Shown here: positions 5,001-54,209 of the stretch, piece after piece
Position numbering within the stretch: the first letter of the stretch is position 1
Layout of the letters: every line of letters begins with the position of its first letter
From: an uncultured Gemmatimonadales bacterium
GTDB taxonomy: Bacteria; Gemmatimonadota; Gemmatimonadetes; Gemmatimonadales; GWC2-71-9
Direction: 5' to 3'
Length of the DNA: 64,000 nucleotides
NCBI GenBank assembly: GCA_963779755.1
Contig: CAVZZO010000001.1
Span: 1,340,845 to 1,404,844 of the forward strand
The notes under the pieces: model-generated
Database searches by the model: none
What the model was told of the DNA's origin: nothing
What the model saw: only the letters and a program-made list of their open reading frames with translations
Position numbers and translations under genes: made by a program

Positions 5001-5003
5001 CCA

Positions 5004-5091
5004 CAGGGATCGGGGACCAGGGATCGGGAGTCAGGGCCCCTGATTCCTGATTCCTGATCCCTGGTCCCTGATCCCTGAATCCCCGATTCCC
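5004..5091. repeat. imperfect hairpin built from tandem heptamers (GGGATCG/GGGACCA arm against a TGATCCC/TGATTCC x6 arm)
   Basis: Read directly. The left arm cagggatcggggaccagggatcgggagtcaggg is roughly the reverse complement of the right arm ccctgattcctgattcctgatccctggtccctgatccctg. It fills the deoC-ALDH spacer. Confidence 0.8.
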
Positions 5092-5100
5092 GGTCTCTCT

Positions 5101-6600
5101 ATGGCCAGCATCCCCGAGATCTTCGAATCCCTCGACTACGGTCCCGCTCCCGAGTCGGCCGGCCCCGCCGTCGGCTGGCTGGAAAAGCACCAACGCCGGT
5201 TCGGGCTCTTCATCAACGGCGAGTGGGTGCAGTCCGGAGAGAGCTTTCCAACCGTGAATCCGGCTACCGGCGAGAGGCTGGCGGAGATCGCCCAGGCGGG
5301 GGAGCGGGAGGTCGAGCAGGCGGTGGCCGCGGCCGCGGCTGTGCAGCCGGCCTGGTGGAAACTCGGCGGCCACGGCAGGGCGCGCCATCTCTACGCCCTC
5401 GCCCGCCAGGTCCAGAAACACTCCCGGCTCTTTGCCGTGCTGGAATCGCTGGACAACGGCAAGCCCATCCGGGAGTCGCGCGATATCGACATCCCGCTGG
5501 TGGCGCGCCACTTCTATCATCACGCCGGATGGGCGCAGCTCATGGCCACCGAGCTGCCGGGCGAGGTGCCGGTGGGGGTGGTGGGGCAGATTATCCCCTG
5601 GAACTTCCCGCTGCTGATGCTGAGCTGGAAGATCGCGCCGGCGCTCGCCATGGGGAACACGGTGGTACTGAAGCCCGCCGAGTTCACCCCGCTGACCGCG
5701 CTGCTCTTTGCCGATCTCTGCCGGGAGGCGGGGCTGCCGCCCGGGGTGGTAAACATCATCACCGGCGATGGCCGCACCGGCGAGCTGCTGGTGCGCCACC
5801 CCGGCGTGGCCAAGATCGCCTTTACCGGCAGCACCGAGGTCGGCCGGCTCATCCGGACCGCCACGGCCGGCAGCGGCAAGCGGTTGTCGCTGGAACTGGG
5901 CGGCAAGTCGCCGTTCATGGTCTACGAAGACGCCGACCTCGACAGCGTCGTGGAAGGCGTGGTGGACGCGATCTGGTTCAACCAGGGGCAGGTCTGCTGC
6001 GCCGGGTCCCGTATTCTGGCGCAGGAGGGCGTGGCCGACGCTCTGGTATCGAAGCTGCGCGCCCGCATGGAATCCTTGCGCGTCGGCTCGCCGCTCGACA
6101 AGGCTGTGGATATCGGCGCCATCGTGGCGCCGGTGCAGCTGGAACGCATTCAGACCCTGGTGCGGCGCGGAGAGGAAGAGGGTGCCACCTGCTGGCAACC
6201 GTCCTGGGCCTGTCCCGAGGAGGGACTGTTCTACCCGCCCACCCTGTTTACCGATGTTGCTCCCTCGGCCACCATCGCCCAGGAGGAGATCTTCGGGCCG
6301 GTGGTGGTGCTCATGACCTTCCGCACGCCCGACGAATCGGTGGAGCTGGCCAACAACACACGCTACGGCCTGGCCGCCAGCCTCTGGACCGAGAACATCA
6401 ACCTGGCGCTCGATATCGCTCCCCGGGTGAAGGCGGGTACGGTCTGGATCAACTGCACCAACGTGTTCGATGCCGCCTCCGGCTTCGGCGGCTACCGGGA
6501 GAGCGGGTTCGGCCGCGAGGGCGGGAAGGAAGGCTTGTGGGAATACGTCCGGCCCACATGGGAATCCCAGGCCGGTGCGGAAGCACCGCCCGCCCCCCAC
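5101..6600 (+). CDS. aldehyde dehydrogenase, complete catalytic module; the literal ORF runs on without a stop to 7029 as off-frame-looking sequence
   Basis: ALDH motifs are present: PWNFPLLM, GNTVVLKPAEFTP, FTGSTEVG, ELGGKSP (catalytic Glu), QGQVCCAGSR (catalytic Cys), EEIFGPV and GYRESGFGREGG. Homology-like sequence ends near ..GLWEYVRPTWE (about 6560). The remaining 150 codons are Arg/Pro/Ala-rich junk. Confidence 0.8.
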
Positions 6601-7481
6601 CTGCCCGCCCGGCCGCCCGCCCGGTTGCGCTCCCTCCCATCGACCGCACCGCCAAGCTCTACATCGGCGGCAGGCAGGTGCGGCCCGACGGCGGCTACAG
6701 CGACCCGGTCCACGGCGCCGATGGCACGGTGCTGGGCGAGGTGGCCCGGGCCAACCGCAAGGACGTCCGCAACGCGGTGGAGGCAGCGCACCAGGCCGGC
6801 GGCTGGGCGCGCGCCACGGCGCACACCCGGGCGCAGATTCTCTACTATCTGGCCGAGAACCTCTCCGCCCGCTCGGAGGAATTCGTCCGCCGGGTGGCGG
6901 CGCTCACCGGTGAGCGCCGGGCCGCCGCGGCGCGCGAGGTGGCGCTCACGATCGAGCGGCTCTACACCTGGGCGGCCTGGGCGGACAAGTGGGACGGGGC
7001 GGTGCACCATACCCCGTTCCGCAATGTGACCCTTGCCATGCCGGAGCCGCTGGGGGTGCTGGGCATCGTCTGTCCGGCCGAGCGGCCGCTGCTGGGGCTG
7101 GTGGCCACCGTTGCTCCGGCCATCGCCATGGGCAATACCGTGGTCGCGGTGCCCTCGGAGGCGCTGCCGCTGGCCGCCACCGATTTCTATCAGGTCATCG
7201 ATACTTCCGATGTCCCGCCCGGCGTGGTCAACCTGTTGACCGGGCCGGCCGACGAGCTGACCCGGGTGCTGGCCGCGCACGACGATGTAGACGGACTCTG
7301 GTACTTCGGGTCCTCCCGGGGGAGCGCCGAAGTCGAGCGCCTCTCGGCCGCCAACATGAAACGGACCTGGGTGAGCTACGGCCGTGCGCGCGACTGGGCC
7401 GATCCCGTGCAGGGAGCCGGCCCGGAATTCCTGCGCCGGGCGACGCAGGTCAAGAACATCTGGATTCCCTACGGCGAGTAG
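6558..7481 (+). CDS. ALDH-like second module (NAD-binding half only, no catalytic Cys region). It is either the frameshifted C-terminal part of a fused two-module ALDH or a separate gene starting at ATG 6558.
   Basis: The frame of track ORF 5223..7481 becomes protein-like only from ..PPIDRTAKLYIGGRQVRPDGGY. It contains GNTVVAVPSE and PPGVVNLLTG, which parallel GNTVVLKPAE and PPGVVNIITG of module 1. It ends about 35 aa after the ELGGK-equivalent position. Confidence 0.65.
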   Translation: MGIPGRCGSTARPPPARPAARPVALPPIDRTAKLYIGGRQVRPDGGYSDPVHGADGTVLGEVARANRKDVRNAVEAAHQAGGWARATAHTRAQILYYLAENLSARSEEFVRRVAALTGERRAAAAREVALTIERLYTWAAWADKWDGAVHHTPFRNVTLAMPEPLGVLGIVCPAERPLLGLVATVAPAIAMGNTVVAVPSEALPLAATDFYQVIDTSDVPPGVVNLLTGPADELTRVLAAHDDVDGLWYFGSSRGSAEVERLSAANMKRTWVSYGRARDWADPVQGAGPEFLRRATQVKNIWIPYGE

Positions 7482-36920: not shown

Positions 36921-37070
36921 TAAACCGCAAAGACGCGAAGGGCGCGAAGGGACGCGAAGGCTGCTTCTACACTGAGAGGCGGTCTCTTGGCCTCTGCGAT
37001 CCGCGCAGGGGTTGGGGGACGCGGTTGTACCGAGTTGCAGTTGTTCGCGCTCTTCGCGTCTTCGCGGTTA
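36921..37070. repeat. long-loop inverted repeat: about 24-bp arms AACCGC(A/G)AAGACGCGAAG(G/A)GCGCG of CGCGAAG-type units around a ~90-nt loop, between convergent punA and thiD
   Basis: The left arm at 36923-36946 against the reverse complement of 37046-37069 matches at 22 of 24 positions by hand. The left arm continues as further CGCGAAGG units to 36960. Confidence 0.8.
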
Positions 37071-40652: not shown

Positions 40653-40800
40653 ATTCACCGCGAAGACGCCAAAGGCGCGAAGGTTGCGAAGTCATGTTGT
40701 GTGGGTCTATCCGTCGGGACCAGGCTGCGCCTGACACCCTGGGAGGGCCGCCAACAGAACACAGATTACTCTTCGCGCCCTTCGCGTCTTCGCGGTGAAT
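40653..40800. repeat. long-loop inverted repeat: 30-bp arms ATTCACCGCGAAGACGC..GGCGCGAAG around a ~88-nt loop, between convergent genes
   Basis: 40653-40682 against the reverse complement of 40771-40800 matches at about 27-28 of 30 positions by hand. It uses the same CGCGAAG unit family as 36921-37070. Confidence 0.85.
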
Positions 40801-40803
40801 CAG

Positions 40804-42369
40804 TCATCGCCCCAACATGACGTTGATCCCGAACGCGATCGCGCCCACGATCGCTCCCAGCACGTAACCCAGGTTCACGATCAGGTCCAGCTCCTTCTGC
40901 GTCACGTTGCGGACGATCTCCTCCATCCGCTGCGTGCTGAACCCCAGCACCTTCTGCTCCACCATCTCCTGGACCTGGATCTGCCCCACCAGCATGGGGA
41001 TCTGGCTCTGCACCCAGCCCCAGGCGGCCTCCACCAGATCCTGCCTGACCCGTGCCGAGCGCTCCTCGCCCAGCCAGCCGGCGGGGCGGCCCAGCGGGCG
41101 GTCGAGCAGGTGGTTCGCCACCGAGCGTACCGTCTCCTCCACCCACTGCTTCCCCCGCGGCCCCGCGGCGGCATCGGCAATGAGCCGGGCCAGCGTCTCG
41201 GCCGGGATGGCGTCCAGCACGTCTCCCCAGGTCCGTTGCTCGGCGGCGTGCAAGGCGCGGTCGACCGTCTGGCCGATCACCCGCCGGGTACCGGCATCGC
41301 GCGCCAGCTTTACCGCCCAGTCGCCCAGGGTCTTCTCCAGATCGGCCCGGCGTTGCTCGCCCAGCCGGCGGAATCGCTCGGCCAGGGGAATGCGCAGGAA
41401 GCTCACCACCGCATCGTTCACCGCGCGGGCAACCTGGGCCTCGATGGCCGGACTCTTCAGCTCGAAGCCCAGCCGGTCCAGCCCCCGCCTCTCGAACCCG
41501 TCCACCAGCCGCGCGATGGTGCGGTCGGTCACCACCATCTTGGCAAGGATGCGCTCGTGCAGCAGCAGATCGCGCACCGTATGGTCGAACGCGTCGCGCA
41601 GGGCGCCCTCGACCTGCCGCCGGGTATCGGGGTTCTGCAGCACCGAGCCGAGCCGCTCCACCGCGACGGGGAGATAATCGGTGATCCCCTGCTCGACGGC
41701 CCCCACCAGCCCGGGCGGCAGCCGCTCCAGCAGGGGCCGGTCGTCGCGTGCCAGGCTGTCCATCTGCTGCGTGATGAACCCGCGTACCGCGTTCTCCAGT
41801 GCCTCGCCCTCGGCCATCTGCCCCACCCACTCGTCCACCTTGCGGGCCAGTGACTCCCGGCGGCCGGCCGTCAGCACCTCGCCCAGCGGCCGGTCGCCCA
41901 GCTCGGCGCGGAGCTTCTCCTGCCAGACCTCCACCCGGGCGACGAAAGCAGGGCCGGCCGTGTACTCCGCCAGCCGCCGGGCCACTACATCGCTCAGTTC
42001 GGGCAGCGCCTGCTCGACGGTCTCCAGCAGGGACGGGCTCAGGCCCTGGCGGAGGGGGCCGCGATCGCGCTCCAGCAGGTCGTTCAGGAAACCGCCGATG
42101 GCCCGGGCGAAGGTCTCATAGACGCTCGGCGTGCTGAGCCGCTGGGCCAGGTCCTCCGGCGTCAGCAGCCGCTCGCCCACCGCCTTGCCCACGCTCTTCG
42201 CCAGACGGGCCTTGTTCTTGGGGATGGCGCCATGAAACCGGAACGGCCCGAACCCGCGCCGGTCGTGGGGATGAAACAGCATCCAGACGGCGACGGCGTT
42301 GGTGATGCCGCCGGACAAGGCACCGACCAGGACGGTGACGATGCCGGTGACGAGGAGCTGGTGGTTCAT
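40804..42369 (-). CDS. DUF445 family membrane-associated protein
   Basis: ATG at 42369. MNHQLLVTGIVTVLVGALSGGITNAVAVWMLFHP...GAIPKNKARLAKSVG.. is the DUF445 N-terminal signature. There is a C-terminal TM helix. Confidence 0.75.
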   Translation of the reverse strand: MNHQLLVTGIVTVLVGALSGGITNAVAVWMLFHPHDRRGFGPFRFHGAIPKNKARLAKSVGKAVGERLLTPEDLAQRLSTPSVYETFARAIGGFLNDLLERDRGPLRQGLSPSLLETVEQALPELSDVVARRLAEYTAGPAFVARVEVWQEKLRAELGDRPLGEVLTAGRRESLARKVDEWVGQMAEGEALENAVRGFITQQMDSLARDDRPLLERLPPGLVGAVEQGITDYLPVAVERLGSVLQNPDTRRQVEGALRDAFDHTVRDLLLHERILAKMVVTDRTIARLVDGFERRGLDRLGFELKSPAIEAQVARAVNDAVVSFLRIPLAERFRRLGEQRRADLEKTLGDWAVKLARDAGTRRVIGQTVDRALHAAEQRTWGDVLDAIPAETLARLIADAAAGPRGKQWVEETVRSVANHLLDRPLGRPAGWLGEERSARVRQDLVEAAWGWVQSQIPMLVGQIQVQEMVEQKVLGFSTQRMEEIVRNVTQKELDLIVNLGYVLGAIVGAIAFGINVMLGR

Positions 42370-42384
42370 GGGTTGGGGAGTATA

Positions 42385-42420
42385 GGCGGCAGGGCGGCAG
42401 GGCGGCAGGGCGGCAGGTGG
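42385..42420. repeat. (GGCAGGGC)x4 octamer array ending GGCAGGTGG
   Basis: Read directly. Its reverse complement (CGCCCTGC)n matches the array at 42973-43052. Confidence 0.9.
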
Positions 42421-42506
42421 GCCGACCCGGACGCCTCCGCGGGCTTCTGAAACGCCCAGCGCTCGAATGATGACAGTCGAGAGGCAGGCGCTGAATACCG
42501 TGGAGC

Positions 42507-42932
42507 ATGCCAAACGCCACCTCCAAGCCCTCGAGGCTCAGTTCCTTTCAGCGCCTCACGGCCTGGCGCGCCTGCCACGAGCTGACTCTCGCGATATATA
42601 GGCAATCCGACTCATGGCCCGAGACCGAGCGCTATGGCCTGATCTCGCAGGTCCGGCGGGCGGCCGTGTCGTGCTGCTGCAACATTGCGGAGGGCAGCGC
42701 AAAGCGTGGGAGTGCCGAGTTCAGGCGTTTTCTCGACATGGCCCTCGGTTCACTGGCCGAGATCGAGGCTCTGTTTCTCATCGCGAGAGATCTTGGGATT
42801 CTCCAGAAGACCACCTGGGGAGAACTTGAGGCTTTCCGCGACCACGCTGGCAAATTGGTTTGGGGTCTGTACCTGGCTGTCGGGAGGCGGACAACGCCGC
42901 GGCCTGCCAAGCCCAGAACGGAGAAGGGATAA
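42507..42932 (+). CDS. four-helix-bundle protein of the 23S rRNA intervening-sequence / Avd-like family
   Basis: ..FQRLTAWRACHELTLAIYRQSDSWPETERYGLISQVRRAAVSCCCNIAEGSAKRGSAEFRRFLDMALGSLAEIEALFLIARDLG.. matches the family pattern (F..L.vW..a..L....Y......P..E.y.L..Q.rRAa.Si..NIAEG..r....e...fl..A.GS..E). Confidence 0.8.
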   Translation: MPNATSKPSRLSSFQRLTAWRACHELTLAIYRQSDSWPETERYGLISQVRRAAVSCCCNIAEGSAKRGSAEFRRFLDMALGSLAEIEALFLIARDLGILQKTTWGELEAFRDHAGKLVWGLYLAVGRRTTPRPAKPRTEKG

Positions 42933-42972
42933 GGGAACGGTCTGGCACGCCGGGCTCTTGTGCAGCATTCTC

Positions 42973-43052
42973 CGCCTTGCCGCCTTGCCGCCTTGCCGCC
43001 TTGCCGCCTTGCCGCCTTGCCGCCTTGCCGCCTTGCCGCCCTGCCGCCTTGC
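42973..43052. repeat. (CGCCTTGC)x10 octamer array (units 1-8 and 10 CGCCTTGC, unit 9 CGCCCTGC)
   Basis: Read directly. It is in inverted orientation relative to 42385-42420. It creates the spurious N-terminal ORF extension ..PPCRLAALPPCRL.. of the ffh track ORF. Confidence 0.9.
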
Positions 43053-43087
43053 TCCTAACCCCATGTCCGCGCTATAATTCCCGGCTT

Positions 43088-44476
43088 ATGTTCGAGGAGC
43101 TTTCGTCCAAACTGACCTCCACCCTGGCCCGCTTCACGGGCCGGGGTGTTCTGACCGAAGAGGCAGTCCGGGAGGGCCTGCGGGAGATCCGCCGGATCCT
43201 GCTCGAGGCGGACGTCAGCTTCGACCTCACGAGGGAATTCCTCGAACATGTGCAGGCCAAAGCGGTTGGGGCGGACGTGCTCAAGAGCGTCCGGCCCGGC
43301 CAGCAGCTGGTCAAGGTCGTCTACGACGAGCTGGTGGCCATGCTGGGCGAGACGCGCGCCCCGCTGGCCGTCGCCTCGGTGCCGCCCACCCTCATCCTGG
43401 TGGTGGGGCTCCAGGGCTCGGGCAAGACGACCACCGTGGCCAAGCTGGCCCGGCGGCTCAAGCAGGAGCAGAAGGCGCCCTTCGTGGTGGCGGCCGACGT
43501 CTACCGTCCCGCCGCCGAAGAGCAGCTGAAGCAGCTGGCGAAGCAGGTGGAGGTCGGTGCCTTCGGCATGACGGATTGGGTGGGGCAGGGTGGACCTGCC
43601 GTCCTGCCGTCTTCCCGTCCTGCGGCGGGGTCGGTGGATGTGGTGGGGCTCGTCCGCTCGGGCATGGAGGCCGCGGGCAAGGCCCGGGCCCGGACGGTCA
43701 TCGTGGATACCGCCGGCCGGCTGCAGATAGACGAAGAGATGATGCACGAGCTGCAGGGCCTGAAGGGCGCCCTGCGGCCGCAGGAGATCCTCCTCGTGGC
43801 CGACGGCATGACCGGCCAGGATGCGGTCCGCATCGCCCGCGGGTTCCACGAGGCGCTGGGCATCACCGGGGTGGTGCTCACCAAGATGGACGGCGACAGC
43901 CGCGGCGGCGCGGCGCTTTCCATCTATGGCGTCACCCACGCGCCCATCAAGTTCGTGGGCACCGGCGAGCGGGTGGATGCGCTGGAGCCGTTCCACCCCG
44001 AGCGGATGGCGGGGCGCATTCTCCAGCAGGGGGATATCCTCTCGCTGGTGGAGAAGGCCCAGGCCACGGTGGACGAGGCCGAGGCCGAGAAGCTGGCGAA
44101 GAAGGCGGGCAGCAAGAAGGGGCTCGATCTGGGCGACTTCCTCACCGCCATGAAGCAGCTCCAGAAGATGGGGCCGCTCAAGAACGTGCTGGGGATGCTG
44201 CCGGGGGTGAACCCGGCGATGCTCAAGTCGGCCAACGTGGACGAAAAGCGGATCCGCCACATCGAGGCGATCGTGCTCTCCATGACGCCCAAGGAACGGG
44301 CCGACCCCGACGTCCTGAACGGATCGCGCCGGCTGCGCATCGCCAAAGGCTCGGGCCGGACGGTGCAGGAGGTAAATCAGCTGCTGAATCAGTTCAAGCA
44401 GATGAAAAAGTTCATGAAGGTGGCCGGGCGTCCCGGCATGAAGCTCCCGCTGGGGGGGATGTTCCCCGGGATGTAA
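43088..44476 (+). CDS. ffh: signal recognition particle protein Ffh
   Basis: ATG at 43088 (MFEELSSKLTSTLARFTGRG). GLQGSGKTTTVAKLA, DTAGRL, TKMDGDSRGGAALS and a Met-rich M domain. It contains an extra segment of about 18 codons (see findings). Confidence 0.95.
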   Translation: MFEELSSKLTSTLARFTGRGVLTEEAVREGLREIRRILLEADVSFDLTREFLEHVQAKAVGADVLKSVRPGQQLVKVVYDELVAMLGETRAPLAVASVPPTLILVVGLQGSGKTTTVAKLARRLKQEQKAPFVVAADVYRPAAEEQLKQLAKQVEVGAFGMTDWVGQGGPAVLPSSRPAAGSVDVVGLVRSGMEAAGKARARTVIVDTAGRLQIDEEMMHELQGLKGALRPQEILLVADGMTGQDAVRIARGFHEALGITGVVLTKMDGDSRGGAALSIYGVTHAPIKFVGTGERVDALEPFHPERMAGRILQQGDILSLVEKAQATVDEAEAEKLAKKAGSKKGLDLGDFLTAMKQLQKMGPLKNVLGMLPGVNPAMLKSANVDEKRIRHIEAIVLSMTPKERADPDVLNGSRRLRIAKGSGRTVQEVNQLLNQFKQMKKFMKVAGRPGMKLPLGGMFPGM

Positions 44477-47116: not shown

Positions 47117-47250
47117 AAGAACCGCGACACGGAGGCACGGAGGCACGGAGCAAGCGAGCTACTACGGCGGCGGCGCCTACGGGGTTATGTATTTAGAACT
47201 TATGTTCCTCCGTGTCTCCGTGTCTCCGTGTCTCCGTGTCACAGTTCTTC
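47116..47250. repeat. long-loop inverted repeat: arms GAAGAAC(CGC/TGT)GACACGGAG(G/A)CACGGAG.. of CACGGAG octamer units (3 units on the left, 4 on the right) around a ~57-nt lower-GC loop
   Basis: 47116-47150 against the reverse complement of 47208-47250, read directly. The right arm ends just before the pepN RBS (caggaga). Confidence 0.85.
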
Positions 47251-47263
47251 CAGGAGATCAGCT

Positions 47264-49714
47264 ATGAGACGTTTTCTCGTTATTGCTCTGATCCTCGCCC
47301 TCCCCGCCCCGCTCGCCGCCCAGTCCAATGCCGAGCGGATGGCCAACGACTGGTATACCCGCTCGCATGATTACGATCTGGTGCACCAGCGCATCCAGCT
47401 CCGCGACATCAACTGGGATTCCACCAGCTTCAAGGGCCGGGTCACCAGCACGCTCGTTGCCCTGCGGCCCGGGCTCGATTCGGTCATCCTCGACGCCGGG
47501 CACCTGCTGAGCATCCAGAGCGTCGTCACCCCGGCCGGCAGGCCGCTCAACTTCAGCACCTCGGGCGATACCCTGGTGGTGCACCTCGCCCGCCCCGCCG
47601 CGTTCCACGACACGGTCCGATTCAGTATCGCCTACGACGCCAGGATCCAGAACGGCCGCGGCCTCACCTTCATCGACGCCGACACCGGTGCCAACTGGCG
47701 GCCGCAGCAGATCTGGAGCCAGGGCGAGGACGACAACAACCACGACTGGTTCCCCACCTACGACTTCCCCAACGACAAGATGTCCTGGGAGATGATCGTG
47801 ACCCTGCCCACGCGGTTCAGTGTGGTCTCCAACGGGAAGCTGGTGAGCGACCGGCCGGCGGAGAAGGGGCAGCATACGGTGACCTGGAGCGAGACGGAGC
47901 CGAGTGCCACCTACCTGGTCTCGCTCATCGTCGCGCCCCTGGTCAAGGTGCACGATACCTGGCAGGGGAAGCCGGTGGATTACTACGTCTACGCCAGGGA
48001 CAGCACCCTGGCCTGGCGCCTCTTCCATGTGACGCCGGACATGATCCAGACCTATTCCGATCTCACCGGCATCAAGTACCCGTGGGCCAAGTATGCCCAG
48101 ACCACCGTCGCGGATTTCTTCGGCGGCATGGAGAACGTGAGCGCCACCACGCTGGTGGACTGGCTGCCCGACGCCACCGCCTACCTCGACCGGCCCTGGT
48201 ACCAGTACATCCTCATTCCCCACGAACTGGCCCACCAGTGGTTCGGCGACTACGTCACCACCGAGAACTGGGCCAACATGTGGCTCAACGAAGGCTTCGC
48301 CGAGTTCATGCCGGGGCAGTACTGGGCGAAGAAGCTGGGCCGCCATGCGGAAGAGGACTACTACCTGGACGAGTACAACTCGTTCATGCGCATCGACCAG
48401 CGCCGCCGGATGCCGCTGGCCTCGCTGGGCAGCAACAACATCTATCCCAAGGGCGCCCTGGTGCTGGAGATGCTGGAGCACTACCTGGGCCCGCAGGCGT
48501 TCTGGGCGTCCGTCAACCGGTACCTGAAGGACCACGCCTTCGACAACGCCACCAGCGACGACCTGCGCCAGGCCGTGCTGGATGCCACCGGACAGAACCT
48601 CGACTGGTGGTGGCAGCAGTGGGTCTACGATGCGGGCTATCCCGAGTTCACGGTCGGCGCGCAGTACGACAGCGCGGGCCACGCGCTGGTCCTGGATGTG
48701 AAGCAGACCCAGGTGGACACCAGCTCGGCCGACAGCACCGGGCTGCGCTATGGCACGCCCCAGGCCTTCCGCATGCCCGTCACGGTGCGGGTGGGCACCG
48801 CCGGGGGCGAGGTGACCCGGACCTTCCAGCTGGCACATCGTGAGGATACCCTGCGGGTGGAACAGGTGCAGTCACCGCCCACCATGGTGATCTTTGACGA
48901 CAACAATCAGATCCTGAAGAAGCTCACCTTCGACCAGCCCAGTGCCTGGCTGGCGCAGCAGCTGAGCCACGATCCCGATCTGTGGAACCGCTGGTGGGTG
49001 ATCGGCCAGCTGGCCGCGCGTGACAGCGATACGGTTGCCGTGAACGCCCTGGCCGACGCGGCGACCGGCGCGGATTACTACCTCACCCGGGTGCAGGCCA
49101 TCGGCGCGCTGGCCGACCTGGCGGGCGAGCGCGCCATGCCCACGCTTACCCAGGCGCTGCGCGACACCTCGGCGACGGTGCGAGGAGCTGCGGTGGAAGC
49201 CATGGGGCAGATCCCCGGGGGCCACGCCGTGGCGCTGCTCAAGCGGGTGCTGGCCGGCGATTCCAGCTACGCGGTGCGCGCCGCCGCTATCGGCGCGCTG
49301 GCGGTGGCGGACTCCGCCAATCGCCGGGAATACATCCAGCAGGGGCTCAGCACGCCGTCCTATCGCGGTGCCCTGCAGAACGCCGCGCTGGGCGTCATCG
49401 CCCGCAGCGGGGATACCAGCTACGTCGAGCCGGTGGCCCATCTCCTGGGCGACGTGCAGAACGCCGCCTTCGTGCTGGCCAGCTTCGCCAACCGGGGGAA
49501 CGCCCGGGCGCTCGACGTGCTGGTCAAGAACCTGGACAGTCCGCGTTCCACCGTCCGCAATTCCGTCCTCCAGGCCTTCCGCTTCGTGGTGCAGCCCAAG
49601 GTAGGGCTGCCCGCGCTCCAGGCCGCGGTGGACAGCCTCTCGCCCCGGGTGAAGGAGCAGGTGCAGGGGGTGCTCAAGCAGATGGAACAGCGGCAGGCGG
49701 GTAACGGGAGGTAA
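47264..49714 (+). CDS. pepN: M1 family aminopeptidase (aminopeptidase N-like) with C-terminal HEAT-like repeats
   Basis: ATG at 47264 with a signal peptide MRRFLVIALILALPAPLAAQ. GGMENVS exopeptidase motif and HELAHQWFGD..(18)..WLNEGFAEF zinc site. The C-terminal region is repetitive and helical. Confidence 0.85.
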   Translation: MRRFLVIALILALPAPLAAQSNAERMANDWYTRSHDYDLVHQRIQLRDINWDSTSFKGRVTSTLVALRPGLDSVILDAGHLLSIQSVVTPAGRPLNFSTSGDTLVVHLARPAAFHDTVRFSIAYDARIQNGRGLTFIDADTGANWRPQQIWSQGEDDNNHDWFPTYDFPNDKMSWEMIVTLPTRFSVVSNGKLVSDRPAEKGQHTVTWSETEPSATYLVSLIVAPLVKVHDTWQGKPVDYYVYARDSTLAWRLFHVTPDMIQTYSDLTGIKYPWAKYAQTTVADFFGGMENVSATTLVDWLPDATAYLDRPWYQYILIPHELAHQWFGDYVTTENWANMWLNEGFAEFMPGQYWAKKLGRHAEEDYYLDEYNSFMRIDQRRRMPLASLGSNNIYPKGALVLEMLEHYLGPQAFWASVNRYLKDHAFDNATSDDLRQAVLDATGQNLDWWWQQWVYDAGYPEFTVGAQYDSAGHALVLDVKQTQVDTSSADSTGLRYGTPQAFRMPVTVRVGTAGGEVTRTFQLAHREDTLRVEQVQSPPTMVIFDDNNQILKKLTFDQPSAWLAQQLSHDPDLWNRWWVIGQLAARDSDTVAVNALADAATGADYYLTRVQAIGALADLAGERAMPTLTQALRDTSATVRGAAVEAMGQIPGGHAVALLKRVLAGDSSYAVRAAAIGALAVADSANRREYIQQGLSTPSYRGALQNAALGVIARSGDTSYVEPVAHLLGDVQNAAFVLASFANRGNARALDVLVKNLDSPRSTVRNSVLQAFRFVVQPKVGLPALQAAVDSLSPRVKEQVQGVLKQMEQRQAGNGR

Positions 49715-49816
49715 GGCGGTAAGGCGGGAAGACGGGAAGGTGGGAAGAGGGAAAGGGGAATGGGGAACGGGCCGTTTCCCTGTTCCCCATTCCCGTTTCC
49801 CTTTAGTTTTCCCGCT
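49711..49816. repeat. purine-rich / pyrimidine-rich octamer-unit hairpin (GGTAAGGC GGTAAGGC GGGAAGAC GGGAAGGT ... against ..CTGTTCCC CATTCCCG TTTCCC..)
   Basis: The centre ggggaatggggaacgggccgtttccctgttccccattccc is a near-perfect palindrome. It starts inside the pepN stop codon region and ends 5 nt before the tRNA. Confidence 0.8.
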
Positions 49817-49820
49817 CTCC

Positions 49821-49893
<73 letters not shown>

Positions 49894-49902
49894 TTAGAGG
49901 GC

Positions 49903-49982
49903 GGCAAGACGGCAAGACGGCAAGACGGCAAGACGGCAAGACGGCAAGGCGGCAGGACGGCAAGACGGCAGGACGGCAGGTG
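49903..49982. repeat. 10-unit octamer array (GGCAAGAC x5, GGCAAGGC, GGCAGGAC, GGCAAGAC, GGCAGGAC, GGCAGGTG) directly 3' of the tRNA
   Basis: Read directly. No clear complementary arm nearby. It ends with the GGCAGGTGGA terminus shared with other arrays. Confidence 0.9.
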
Positions 49983-53459: not shown

Positions 53460-53858
53460 GTGGTCAACGCTGTTCTGTTCGCCCTGTCGGTCGGGTTCTG
53501 CCTCACGTTCCTGCTGGTGGGCGTCTTCCGCTGGCGCCACCCGCGCCATCCGGCCATGTGGAAGGCCGCCGTCTTTCTCTTCGCCATCCTCTTTCTGGTA
53601 GTCCTGGTCGCCGGAGTCTGGCAGCCCAATTACGGGTCGCCCTGGGGGCAAGGGTACTGGGTCACGTTCGTGCTGGTCGGCTCCGTCGCGGCCATGTTTC
53701 TCGCCGCCGCCCCGCCGGAGCGGCGTCCGCCGCCGGAAGCGACAGCCGAGGTGGCCGAGTACCACGAGAAGGAGATTTCCGGCACCGTCTTCGGCGTGTT
53801 CTTCTGGATGCTGCTTCTTTCGCTGGGCCTGGTGCTGGGAATCCGGCTGATACACTAG
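53460..53858 (+). CDS. hypothetical membrane protein (4 TM)
   Basis: GTG start. Hydrophobic segments VLFALSVGFCLTFLLVGVF, AAVFLFAILFLVVLVAGVW, WVTFVLVGSVAAMFLAA and VFGVFFWMLLLSLGLVLGI. Confidence 0.5.
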   Translation: MVNAVLFALSVGFCLTFLLVGVFRWRHPRHPAMWKAAVFLFAILFLVVLVAGVWQPNYGSPWGQGYWVTFVLVGSVAAMFLAAAPPERRPPPEATAEVAEYHEKEISGTVFGVFFWMLLLSLGLVLGIRLIH

Positions 53859-53995
53859 GACGGCAGGACGGCCCTGAAGGACCTCCTCGCGGCCTCTTCG
53901 TTGGAGGGCCGCTCGGTCGCAGGACGGCAGGACGGCCCTAAAGGACTTCCTCGCGGCTCTCTATTGGAGGCCGCTCGGTCGCAGGACGGCAGGGG
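53858..53995. repeat. 2.2 tandem copies of a ~62-nt unit beginning AGGACGGCAGGACGGCCCT
   Basis: 53858-53920 and 53921-53982 align nearly base for base, with a few substitutions and a 1-nt length difference, followed by a partial third start. Read directly. Confidence 0.9.
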
Positions 53996-54037
53996 AAGGT
54001 GCCCACGCTCCGCGCCTGTTGGACGCCGATCTTCGCT

Positions 54038-54128
54038 CAGCCATCAGCCATCAGCCATCAGCCATCAGCCATCAGCCATCAGCCATCAGCCATCAGCCAT
54101 CAGCCATCAGCCATCAGCCATCAGCCCT
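54038..54128. repeat. perfect (CAGCCAT)x12 heptamer microsatellite plus one degenerate unit, continuing into CGCCTTCC-type octamers to about 54180
   Basis: Read directly. It causes the spurious ..SAISHQPSAISHQP.. ORF translations in three frames. Confidence 0.95.
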
Positions 54129-54209
54129 CCGTCCTCCGCCCTTCCCGCCTTCCCGCCCTGCCGCCTTCCCGCCTATTTTCCCCCCATCCTTCTTCAGGAT
54201 CAGTCACTC

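Follow-up and report, generated by a model that had tools for sequence, protein, structure and literature searches.

The window analysed here is a 64,000-nucleotide (64-kb) stretch of the genome of an uncultured Gemmatimonadales bacterium. Between its divergent DUF445 and ffh genes lies a gene for a 141-aa four-helix-bundle protein, bracketed by two arrays of short tandem units that are inverted with respect to each other; we refer to the gene and its arrays together as the cassette. The features of the locus are given below in window coordinates, the spacers and the TATAAT box being placed by sequence.

40804 to 42369, minus strand: DUF445 gene (PF04286, E 3e-32), left neighbour, reading away from the cassette; start codon ATG at 42369-42367
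42367 to 42384, no strand: outer extension of the left arm (CATGGGTTGGGGAGTATA), non-repetitive, aligning with the reverse complement of 43052-43065
42385 to 42420, no strand: left (5′) G-rich arm, (GGCGGCAG)x4.1, placed at 42385-42417 by Tandem Repeats Finder (TRF) and continuing into GGTGGGC
42421 to 42506, plus strand: 86-nt spacer from the left arm to the open reading frame (ORF)
42507 to 42932, plus strand: four-helix-bundle gene, 141 aa, S23p / 23S_rRNA_IVP / XCC0516 family (PF05635, TIGR02436)
42933 to 42971, plus strand: 39-nt spacer from the stop codon to the right arm
42972 to 43052, no strand: right (3′) C-rich arm, (CCGCCTTG)x10.1 (TRF score 155, 97% matches)
43052 to 43065, no strand: outer extension of the right arm (CTCCTAACCCCATG), matching the left extension CATGGGTTGGGGAGTATA
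43073 to 43078, plus strand: TATAAT box, just beyond the stem
43088 to 44476, plus strand: ffh (SRP54; PF00448, PF02978, PF02881), right neighbour, reading away from the cassette

The left array (TRF score 66, 100% matches) and the right array form an inverted repeat with 39-nt arms that are 85–91% complementary (inverted-repeat pairs I1–I11). Unit 9 of the right array, CCGCCCTG, is the exact complement of the left unit, and the remaining right-array units differ from that complement by a single C>T change that gives a G:T pair. The inverted repeat reaches past both arrays into the outer extensions, the left of which holds the DUF445 start codon and a TATACT box, both on the minus strand. The sole ORF between the arms is the four-helix-bundle gene. 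A first-pass annotation, made from the letters alone, had described the bracketing inverted arrays, the exact complementarity of unit 9 and the 141-aa four-helix-bundle gene at 42507–42932; all of these hold, its repeat units being the same repeats in another register. For DUF445 the longest-ORF start was rejected and the start corrected to 42369. The GGAG at 42502–42505 is likely the ribosome-binding site of the four-helix-bundle gene, and the TATAAT at 43073–43078, where the promoter scan made no call, is likely the −10 element of ffh. The final right-array unit gives TTGCTC, 18 nt 5′ of this TATAAT (43049–43078), and each right-array unit contains a −35-like TTGCCG, so that a change in array length would move the upstream promoter-like sites and leave the proximal one in place. 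A conserved AT-rich box, AGTATA in the window (42379–42384) and AAATATAG elsewhere (loci L021, L025, L089, L097, L095 and L116), separates the G-rich arm from the start codon of the divergent gene upstream. On the other strand this box reads TATACT or TATATT, 5–9 nt before the ATG, and it looks like the −10 element of a leaderless or nearly leaderless mRNA.

The protein matches PF05635 (E 5.8e-28, 97.7 bits against a cut-off of 33.8) and TIGR02436 (E 1.4e-25, 89.6 bits against a cut-off of 24). An AlphaFold (AF2) model built from 31 homologues consists of four helices (pLDDT 88), and its best Foldseek matches are XCC0516 (2gsc; E 2e-7, TM 0.89–0.92, 40% identity) and, also among the best, BT_0352 (2rld); a profile search reached 2gsc at E 8e-29. 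The RxxxSxxxNxxE motif conserved in this family (Lin 2006; Zhang 2013, PMC3936711) is present as R51, S55, N59 and E62, nearly invariant in the homologue alignments, and 31 columns are invariant across the 31 aligned sequences. The gene had initially been labelled Avd-like. Foldseek finds Avd (4dwl, 8ub7) at E 0.056–0.09 with 9% identity, a target-normalised TM of 0.8–0.87 and a root-mean-square deviation of ~2 Å, and a PDB sequence search gave no match to Avd 4dwl at E <= 0.01. The shared four-helix-bundle fold therefore stands and a kinship at the sequence level does not: judged with the predicted model, the window gene is a clear member of the S23p/XCC0516 family, its close relatives are XCC0516 and BT_0352, and "Avd-like" is true at the level of the fold only. 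We know of two crystal structures of S23p/TIGR02436 proteins and of no function for them.

Because the window holds at least five other inverted array pairs (listed below), the bracket alone could be a coincidence and needed testing against relatives. Metagenome contigs were scanned with a 32-homologue alignment, giving 80 loci, mostly from soil Gemmatimonadales, which are the best 80 of at least 563 matches. Flanks were scored by aligning the 300 nt on the 5′ side of a gene with the reverse-complemented 300 nt on its 3′ side (match +2, mismatch −3), and control genes were predicted by a heuristic based on the GC content of third codon positions (GC3). The window locus scores 60. For the four-helix-bundle genes of 69 loci the median score in inverted orientation was 44, with 57% at 40 or above, compared to a median of 19 for the same flanks in direct orientation (0% at 40 or above) and of 19 for 69 pairs of flanks taken across different loci (6%). 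Other predicted genes in the homologue loci, scored in inverted orientation, likewise gave medians of 19, both for all 479 of them (1% at 40 or above) and for the 137 shorter than 200 aa (0%). Dereplication at 85% protein identity left 54 clusters, 47 with usable flanks, which were re-measured from the Pfam domain ends because some ORF tails enter the 3′ array. Here 32 of the 47 clusters (68%) scored at least 40 and 39 (83%) at least 35; none of the 47 reached these scores in direct orientation, and most clusters below the cut-off still show short inverted arrays. A survey of the family for flanking inverted arrays, suggested with the first-pass annotation, thus came out positive in 32–39 of 47 Gemmatimonadales clusters, and also in Cyanobacteria, Bacteroidota and an Azospirillum rRNA described below.

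The array units are locus-specific (GGCGGTAA, GGCGGCAG, GACGGGAA, GGAATGAT, GGGCGGAT, GGGGCAGC and others), and the arms match within each locus. Over all inverted array pairs in 99 loci and the window, loop lengths are bimodal, 17 being below 100 nt and ~60 falling at 400–650 nt with the gene inside, and 87 of 88 pairs have the G-rich arm ahead of the C-rich one. Since a G-first order reads alike on both strands it is uninformative on gene orientation, and a polarity tied to the gene, considered because the G-rich arm lay upstream of the ORF in 32/32 clusters, was rejected as strand-symmetric and also present in gene-free pairs. Any transcript starting inside the loop meets the C-rich arm, a possible Rho loading site. 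One orthologue group (L062, L065, L085, L091, L092 and L094; e.g. L062 4992–5408) has an ORF that runs into the C-rich array, with the tail ...SPPTAHYRPIPPVTA, so that a change in copy number would alter the C-terminus; at these loci a 277-aa secreted-looking protein is encoded between a G-rich array after rpmA and a second G-rich array before the four-helix-bundle gene.

The two arms also change together. L116 is a true orthologue of the window locus, containing the closest homologue (P0002, 71% identical) and, beside it, the genes for the A24 peptidase, DUF6782 and DUF445 (minus strand, the four-helix-bundle gene being on the plus strand). It retains the outer flanks GGGGAGTATAGG on the left and CCTAACCCCATGTCCG on the right, and its arms are ~10 copies of GGACGGTC, and GACCGTCC, replacing the GGCAGGGC / GCCTTGCC of the window. 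In clusters downstream of rpmA the arms are GGCGGCA/TGCCGCC in some and GGCGGTA/TACCGCC in others. Between orthologues at least 85% identical the unit is constant and copy number varies independently in each arm (CATCATTC x4 vs x12, GGAATGAT x4 vs x14). That the arms change jointly suggests that they either swap information or are selected to pair, and hence that they pair physically at some stage. The co-variation of the arms between orthologous loci supports the pairing that had been proposed from the window alone.

To follow the position itself, genome contigs were scanned with DUF445, which gave 19 Gemmatimonadales loci (best DUF445 match 58% identical), 16 of them with the divergent ffh/DUF445 order kept. 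Ten relatives have a spacer of only 95–230 nt and no four-helix-bundle gene. Several of these gene-less spacers retain an inverted short-unit hairpin at the ffh-upstream position (GAGAAGC... / (CTTCTCG)x7 in L008, (GAGAAGC)x3 / CTCGCTTCTCGC in L011, GATGTTG / CCAACAT in L007), and L034 has a hairpin in the same spacer, GCGGGAGCA, with a 60-nt loop. Since a hairpin is kept at a spacer without the gene, the hairpins are not simply the gene's cargo, and the initial picture of the arrays as a private part of a travelling cassette fails on this point and on the abundance of gene-free inverted pairs. Two loci, L001 and L055, do have a four-helix-bundle gene between inverted arrays in the ffh–DUF445 spacer, in the opposite orientation. 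Their proteins are 66% identical to each other and 50–54% identical to the window protein, no closer than copies from unrelated loci, a divergence which argues that the spacer was occupied independently by two lineages rather than flipped once; a single inversion of an ancestral cassette upstream of ffh was rejected for the same reason, the two lineages being only ~50% identical. The ffh–DUF445 spacer is an insertion hot spot. In L001, the closest relative in the genome collection, it also contains, outside the hairpin (6457–7383), a gene for a 308-aa putative zinc metallopeptidase (HExxH). Insertions of 1.7–3.6 kb are present in the same spacer of L004, L009 and L017–L019.

The window contains ~20 arrays of 7–10-nt units, several from a related GGCRG family, and, in intergenic spacers, no fewer than five other inverted array pairs whose short loops hold no gene.

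5001 to 5095: gene-free inverted pair, CAGGGAT/CCCTGAT
36926 to 37070: gene-free inverted pair, CGCGAAG/CTTCGCG
40655 to 40800: gene-free inverted pair, CGCGAAG/CTTCGCG
47128 to 47240: gene-free inverted pair, CACGGAGG/CTCCGTGT
49713 to 49800: gene-free inverted pair, GGGAAAG-like units

The loops of these five pairs range from a few nt to ~85 nt, and the G/purine-rich arm always comes first. The two CGCGAAG pairs are 3.7 kb apart and have unrelated loops. DUF445 is thus flanked by hairpins on both sides, a gene-free one at the 3′ end and the occupied one at the 5′ end. A repeat-built hairpin stands before the tRNA-Lys(UUU) gene at 49821–49893 and the array (CGGCAAGA)x9.6 after it (49821–49978); the unit of this array is related to those around the four-helix-bundle gene and has no clear complementary partner downstream. 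The spacer at 53857–54174 is filled by a complex repeat block, in which a 64-nt unit x2.2 bounded by GGACGGCAGGACGGC is followed by (TCAGCCA)x12.9 and then by an CCTTCCCG/CCCTGCCG array. In this Gemmatimonadales lineage hairpins also stand alone in many spacers, and the gene came to occupy the one upstream of ffh.

The surroundings of the cassette are housekeeping genes, ThiD, the A24 prepilin peptidase, DUF6782 and DUF445 on the left and Ffh, S16, RimM, TrmD, L19 and RNase HII on the right. GC3 is 0.74 for the four-helix-bundle gene vs 0.91 for its neighbours. No second copy of the gene is present in the 64-kb window, and the locus lies between DUF445 and ffh, not in helix 25 or 45 of 23S rRNA; a search of 41800–43600 against Rfam, including relaxed thresholds, gave no match. 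No reverse transcriptase, transposase or recombinase is encoded by the Pfam-scanned neighbours (37 to 50 kb; template and variable repeats were not searched for), in agreement with the first-pass annotation as to the reverse transcriptase. PADLOC and PHROGs gave no match for the window gene, and an IMG/VR scan and a phage tblastn search gave no relatives of it.

The same plan recurs in other phyla, sampled here by few loci and without gene-level controls. Plasmids searched with tblastn gave 27 records, and 11 of the 16 loci analysed from them score at least 40. The gene is bracketed by GGGCAGGA/CTCCTGCC in Gemmatirosa, by TAGGGAG/TCCCTAC between nrdB and nrdA in Nostoc edaphicum, by AGTCAGG/CCTGACT adjoining its ATG in Aulosira and two Nostoc plasmids, by GGGTGTA/CTACACC in N. 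punctiforme and Calothrix brevissima, by GGTGACA/TGTCACC between cas6 and cas4 in Anabaena 90 and by AAGGGAA/TTTCCCT in Geminocystis. Weaker brackets are found in Picosynechococcus (between cmr2 and cmr3), Stanieria and Calothrix 7716, while two PCC 7120 copies have the 3′ arm only, beside an insertion sequence, and the arrays of Pseudanabaena are mostly direct rather than inverted. The homologue in Azospirillum lipoferum (L104) is a genuine intervening sequence of 23S rRNA helix 45 with the gene in sense. Its order is rRNA ...TACCGAAGCTGCGGAT, TCAGAGGACGGATGACAGAGGACGGAGGACAGAAAG, gene, CTATCCGTCCTCTGTCTTCTGTCATCCGTCTTCTGA, after which the rRNA resumes, and the gene is flanked by TCAGAGGACGGATGACAGAGGACGGAGGACAGA and its complement. 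Four of five distinct Bacteroidota loci score at least 40. There, BT_0352-like genes lie between araD and araA, with (AATTGAC)x5 adjoining the gene's ATG and (ATTGTCA)x4 adjoining the araA ATG, and flavobacterial copies lie between the genes for mevalonate decarboxylase and mevalonate kinase, with arms AATTGATAAT/ATTATCAATT. The plan of an ORF in a stem-loop outside rRNA, which had been recognised at the window locus, is thus found both there and in relatives across phyla.

Published data contain parts of this pattern. The intervening sequence of Coxiella has a 28-bp stem that is cut by RNase III, and tandem GACAGAT heptamers, variable in number between strains, precede the S23p ATG (PMC4990558). 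In X. campestris an array of GGGAATC x4 overlaps the annotated start of XCC0516 (supplement of PMC4692102), and the Xanthomonas genome contains 70–75 convergent intergenic GGGAATC pairs, the G-rich arm first (Rehm et al. 2015, PMC4692102). Genes of the family have been reported between cas genes, with no mention of flanking repeats (PMC3936711). We find four-helix-bundle genes with arrays of their own wedged between cas6 and cas4 and between cmr2 and cmr3 (L103, L110, L111), between araD and araA, and between mevalonate decarboxylase and kinase (L117–L119, L122–L124). The reported link of the family to cas genes (PMC3936711) may come from insertions into the spacers of operons and not from any function in common. 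A general gene-in-hairpin rule is not stated in the full-text literature searched, which did not cover older subscription papers, so that a prior description is possible.

We conclude, with high confidence, that there is a type of cassette in which an S23p four-helix-bundle gene occupies the loop of a hairpin whose stem is made of inverted tandem arrays, and that the window locus, with its pairing arms, is a member. We are equally confident that ORF-bearing rRNA intervening sequences belong to the type, which occurs in at least four phyla. Its arms are inverted arrays of 7–10-nt units, the 5′ arm being G/purine-rich and the 3′ arm C/pyrimidine-rich on either strand.

How the stem would work is a more tentative matter. 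The arms would base-pair in vivo, and such pairing would make them change jointly while unit sequence and copy number drift. The paired form is most likely RNA: a transcript crossing the whole cassette, from either strand, would fold into a duplex of ~40–50 bp around the ORF. RNase III would then cut this duplex, by analogy with the rRNA intervening sequences, and split the RNA of the cassette from those of the flanking genes, a separation that would leave DUF445 and ffh largely unharmed by the insertion. Purifying selection probably acts on the four-helix-bundle protein. Avd, the accessory protein of diversity-generating retroelements, forms basic pentamers and binds RNA jointly with the reverse transcriptase, and by analogy the four-helix-bundle protein probably binds nucleic acid. 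That the stem acts as an RNase III-type RNA duplex isolating the cassette from its neighbours, as the rRNA copies suggest, we place slightly short of an even chance; for the statement as a whole, cassette type plus RNase III-type mechanism, we regard the chances as evenly balanced. Folding agrees with an RNA stem, since the predicted fold of a 697-nt RNA from the locus closes a stem of ~50 bp around the ORF (minimum-energy and centroid folds agree, z = −7.1), consistent with the earlier suggestion of a long-range stem enclosing it. In Bacteroidota and at many cyanobacterial loci the gene is co-directional in tight operons, making a transcript that spans both arms very likely.

Several results weigh against an RNA stem or are neutral. 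The mismatches of the arms, a neutral test, show no sense-strand G·U bias (31 G:T/T:G vs 26 A:C/C:A; counted by cluster, 8 vs 9). Of 46 Gemmatimonadales clusters, 37 have a downstream neighbour that converges on the gene; both neighbours read against the gene in 16 clusters and in its own direction in 4. To judge by gene order, the gene in this group is not usually part of a sense operon transcript. In 8 of 39 clusters the ORF is separated from the 5′ arm by a terminator (a stem and a T-run), and there the gene's own mRNA is probably without the 5′ arm. The gene's promoter was not located: a scan of the locus for consensus sigma-70 promoters and terminators was empty, and candidate sigma-70-like sites in the interval from the 5′ arm to the ATG (33 clusters) did not outscore shuffled sequences. 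Complementarity would also be preserved if the DNA strands paired and templates were switched from one arm to the other. As to the antisense placement, an inverted repeat is symmetric and an antisense transcript across the cassette would form the identical stem, which makes this placement compatible with excision at the RNA level. The terminators are built from the last G-rich unit, a single complementary unit and a T-run, e.g. GGCGGCAAGCATCGACTTGGCCGCCTTTTTTT (L067, L061, L031, L080, L028, L060, L090 and L096), and, placed immediately ahead of the four-helix-bundle gene, serve as intrinsic terminators of the gene upstream, which is often rpmA.

One alternative places the element at the level of DNA. 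The cassette, or the gene alone, would move as DNA and target or create hairpin-forming inverted arrays, the protein being a nucleic-acid-binding factor and the arms being kept complementary by template switching or gene conversion, in a RAYT/REPIN-like manner. We consider this unlikely, though a serious possibility. It would accommodate the gene-free inverted arrays, which far outnumber the occupied ones and sit at the orthologous position in relatives, the two gene lineages (50% identical) in opposite orientations upstream of ffh, the lower GC3 of the gene (0.74 vs 0.91) and the lack of G·U bias; the G-rich arm coming first in 87/88 pairs is strand-symmetric, as expected of a DNA feature, and the loops hold almost only four-helix-bundle genes, one cluster having a further gene in the interval between two nested array pairs, outer and inner. 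However, no transposase, recombinase or reverse transcriptase is nearby, there is no target-site duplication (immediately beyond the arms the sequences form an inverted, not a direct, repeat), different loci have different arm sequences even in a single genome, in contrast to transposon ends or REP sequences, and several contexts, such as that downstream of rpmA, are stably inherited across clusters. Alternatively the arrays could be terminators, insulators or promoter-adjacent elements of the neighbours, with no role of the stem for the gene, which would simply survive best in a hairpin loop where the neighbours are undisturbed. Arrays do adjoin the −35 region of ffh and, where neighbours converge, their stop codons (ACTAG...CTAGT), the last G-rich unit is often the stem of a T-run terminator, gene-free hairpins are common between genes, and Xanthomonas has its 70–75 convergent intergenic GGGAATC array pairs (PMC4692102). 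Such a refuge leaves unexplained why this one family, and essentially no other small gene type, fills the loops, when 1% of 479 control genes and 0% of the 137 below 200 aa do so, and why the arrangement recurs in 23S rRNA and in Bacteroidota and cyanobacterial operons with arrays adjoining the gene's ATG; we find it improbable.

Recombination between the arms that flips the gene relative to an outside promoter, as in an invertible switch, would account for the gene being found in both orientations upstream of ffh in different genomes. The opposite copies are 50–54% identical, no closer than copies at unrelated loci, no recombinase is nearby, and the arms are short and imperfect, making such a switch very improbable. 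Coincidence, in which two independent arrays happen to flank the gene in a genome rich in tandem repeats, could draw on the ~20 short-unit arrays of the window, several of the related GGCRG family. We give it practically no credence and reject it on the control comparison (a 1% control rate vs 68–83% for the four-helix-bundle family), the dereplicated survey and the joint change of the arms in the orthologue L116.

The rRNA intervening sequences look like one case of a much wider, apparently undescribed cassette, and three puzzles merge into one testable question: the origin of 23S rRNA intervening sequences and why some bear an ORF, the role of the very abundant, multi-copy S23p/TIGR02436 proteins, and why many bacteria pack intergenic DNA with inverted 7–10-nt tandem arrays. 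If the gene-in-a-hairpin plan holds in general, the four-helix-bundle genes among cas genes and in ara and mevalonate operons are probably insertions, not pathway partners. Copies are present in cultured, genetically tractable hosts (Bacteroides thetaiotaomicron, Nostoc and Xanthomonas). A broader reading, which we hold to be rather doubtful, is that S23p/PF05635 proteins are one half, and hairpins of inverted tandem repeats the other, of a single pan-bacterial genetic system, in which the protein might bind, maintain, generate or move into hairpins in the style of RAYT acting on REPIN. With similar reserve, the ORF-bearing rRNA intervening sequences, cyanobacterial STRR (short tandemly repeated repetitive) arrays, Xanthomonas GGGAATC pairs and "cas-associated" four-helix-bundle genes might all be products of that one system.

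Comparison with known systems places the cassette as follows. It differs from a transposon or miniature inverted-repeat transposable element in that its arm units vary by locus (6% of cross-locus pairs score 40 or more) and it has neither a target-site duplication nor a transposase. With RAYT/REPIN it may share a gene flanked by inverted copies of a repeat that is also dispersed as gene-free hairpins in intergenic DNA; it has no HuH/Y1 transposase, however, its protein being a four-helix bundle, and its repeats are tandem arrays with locus-specific units rather than a conserved 20–40-nt REP. Gene-free hairpins are common, in the 64 kb of the source genome and in the relatives' loci, and those within the same loci carry other units. 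Stems cut by RNase III flank 16S and 23S rRNA and separate the early cistrons of phage T7. These resemble the cassette in the long-range pairing on either side of a functional RNA or cistron, and differ in being formed by unique sequences, whereas the window locus has tandem arrays and its cutting is a proposal. Cyanobacterial STRR heptamers and the Xanthomonas GGGAATC pairs (PMC4692102) share with it 7–9-nt intergenic units, often in convergent inverted pairs, the G-rich arm first, and a variable length at a conserved position, but their reports make no link to four-helix-bundle genes, and in the window lineage the units are locus-specific within a genome. Avd has the same four-helix-bundle fold, at 9% identity, and in the window no reverse transcriptase lies among the neighbours. 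XCC0516 (2gsc) and BT_0352 (2rld) belong to the same protein family, share the R-x3-S-x3-N-x2-E motif and have arrays at both genes, BT_0352-like genes being bracketed by AATTGAC/ATTGTCA arrays; at the protein level they differ in sequence divergence only, and for both the flanking arrays are undescribed in the literature searched. ORF-bearing intervening sequences of 23S rRNA occur in Leptospira, Coxiella and Brucella. The window copy differs from these in lying between protein-coding genes, with no abundant precursor RNA known to carry it, and RNase III cutting has been shown for the rRNA copies only. The likeness is otherwise close: a protein of the family encoded in the loop, terminal inverted repeats, a stem of ~30–50 bp and a purine-rich 5′ arm of short tandem units (GACAGAT in Coxiella, PMC4990558; GGACGGA/GGACAGA in Azospirillum) whose copy number varies between strains.

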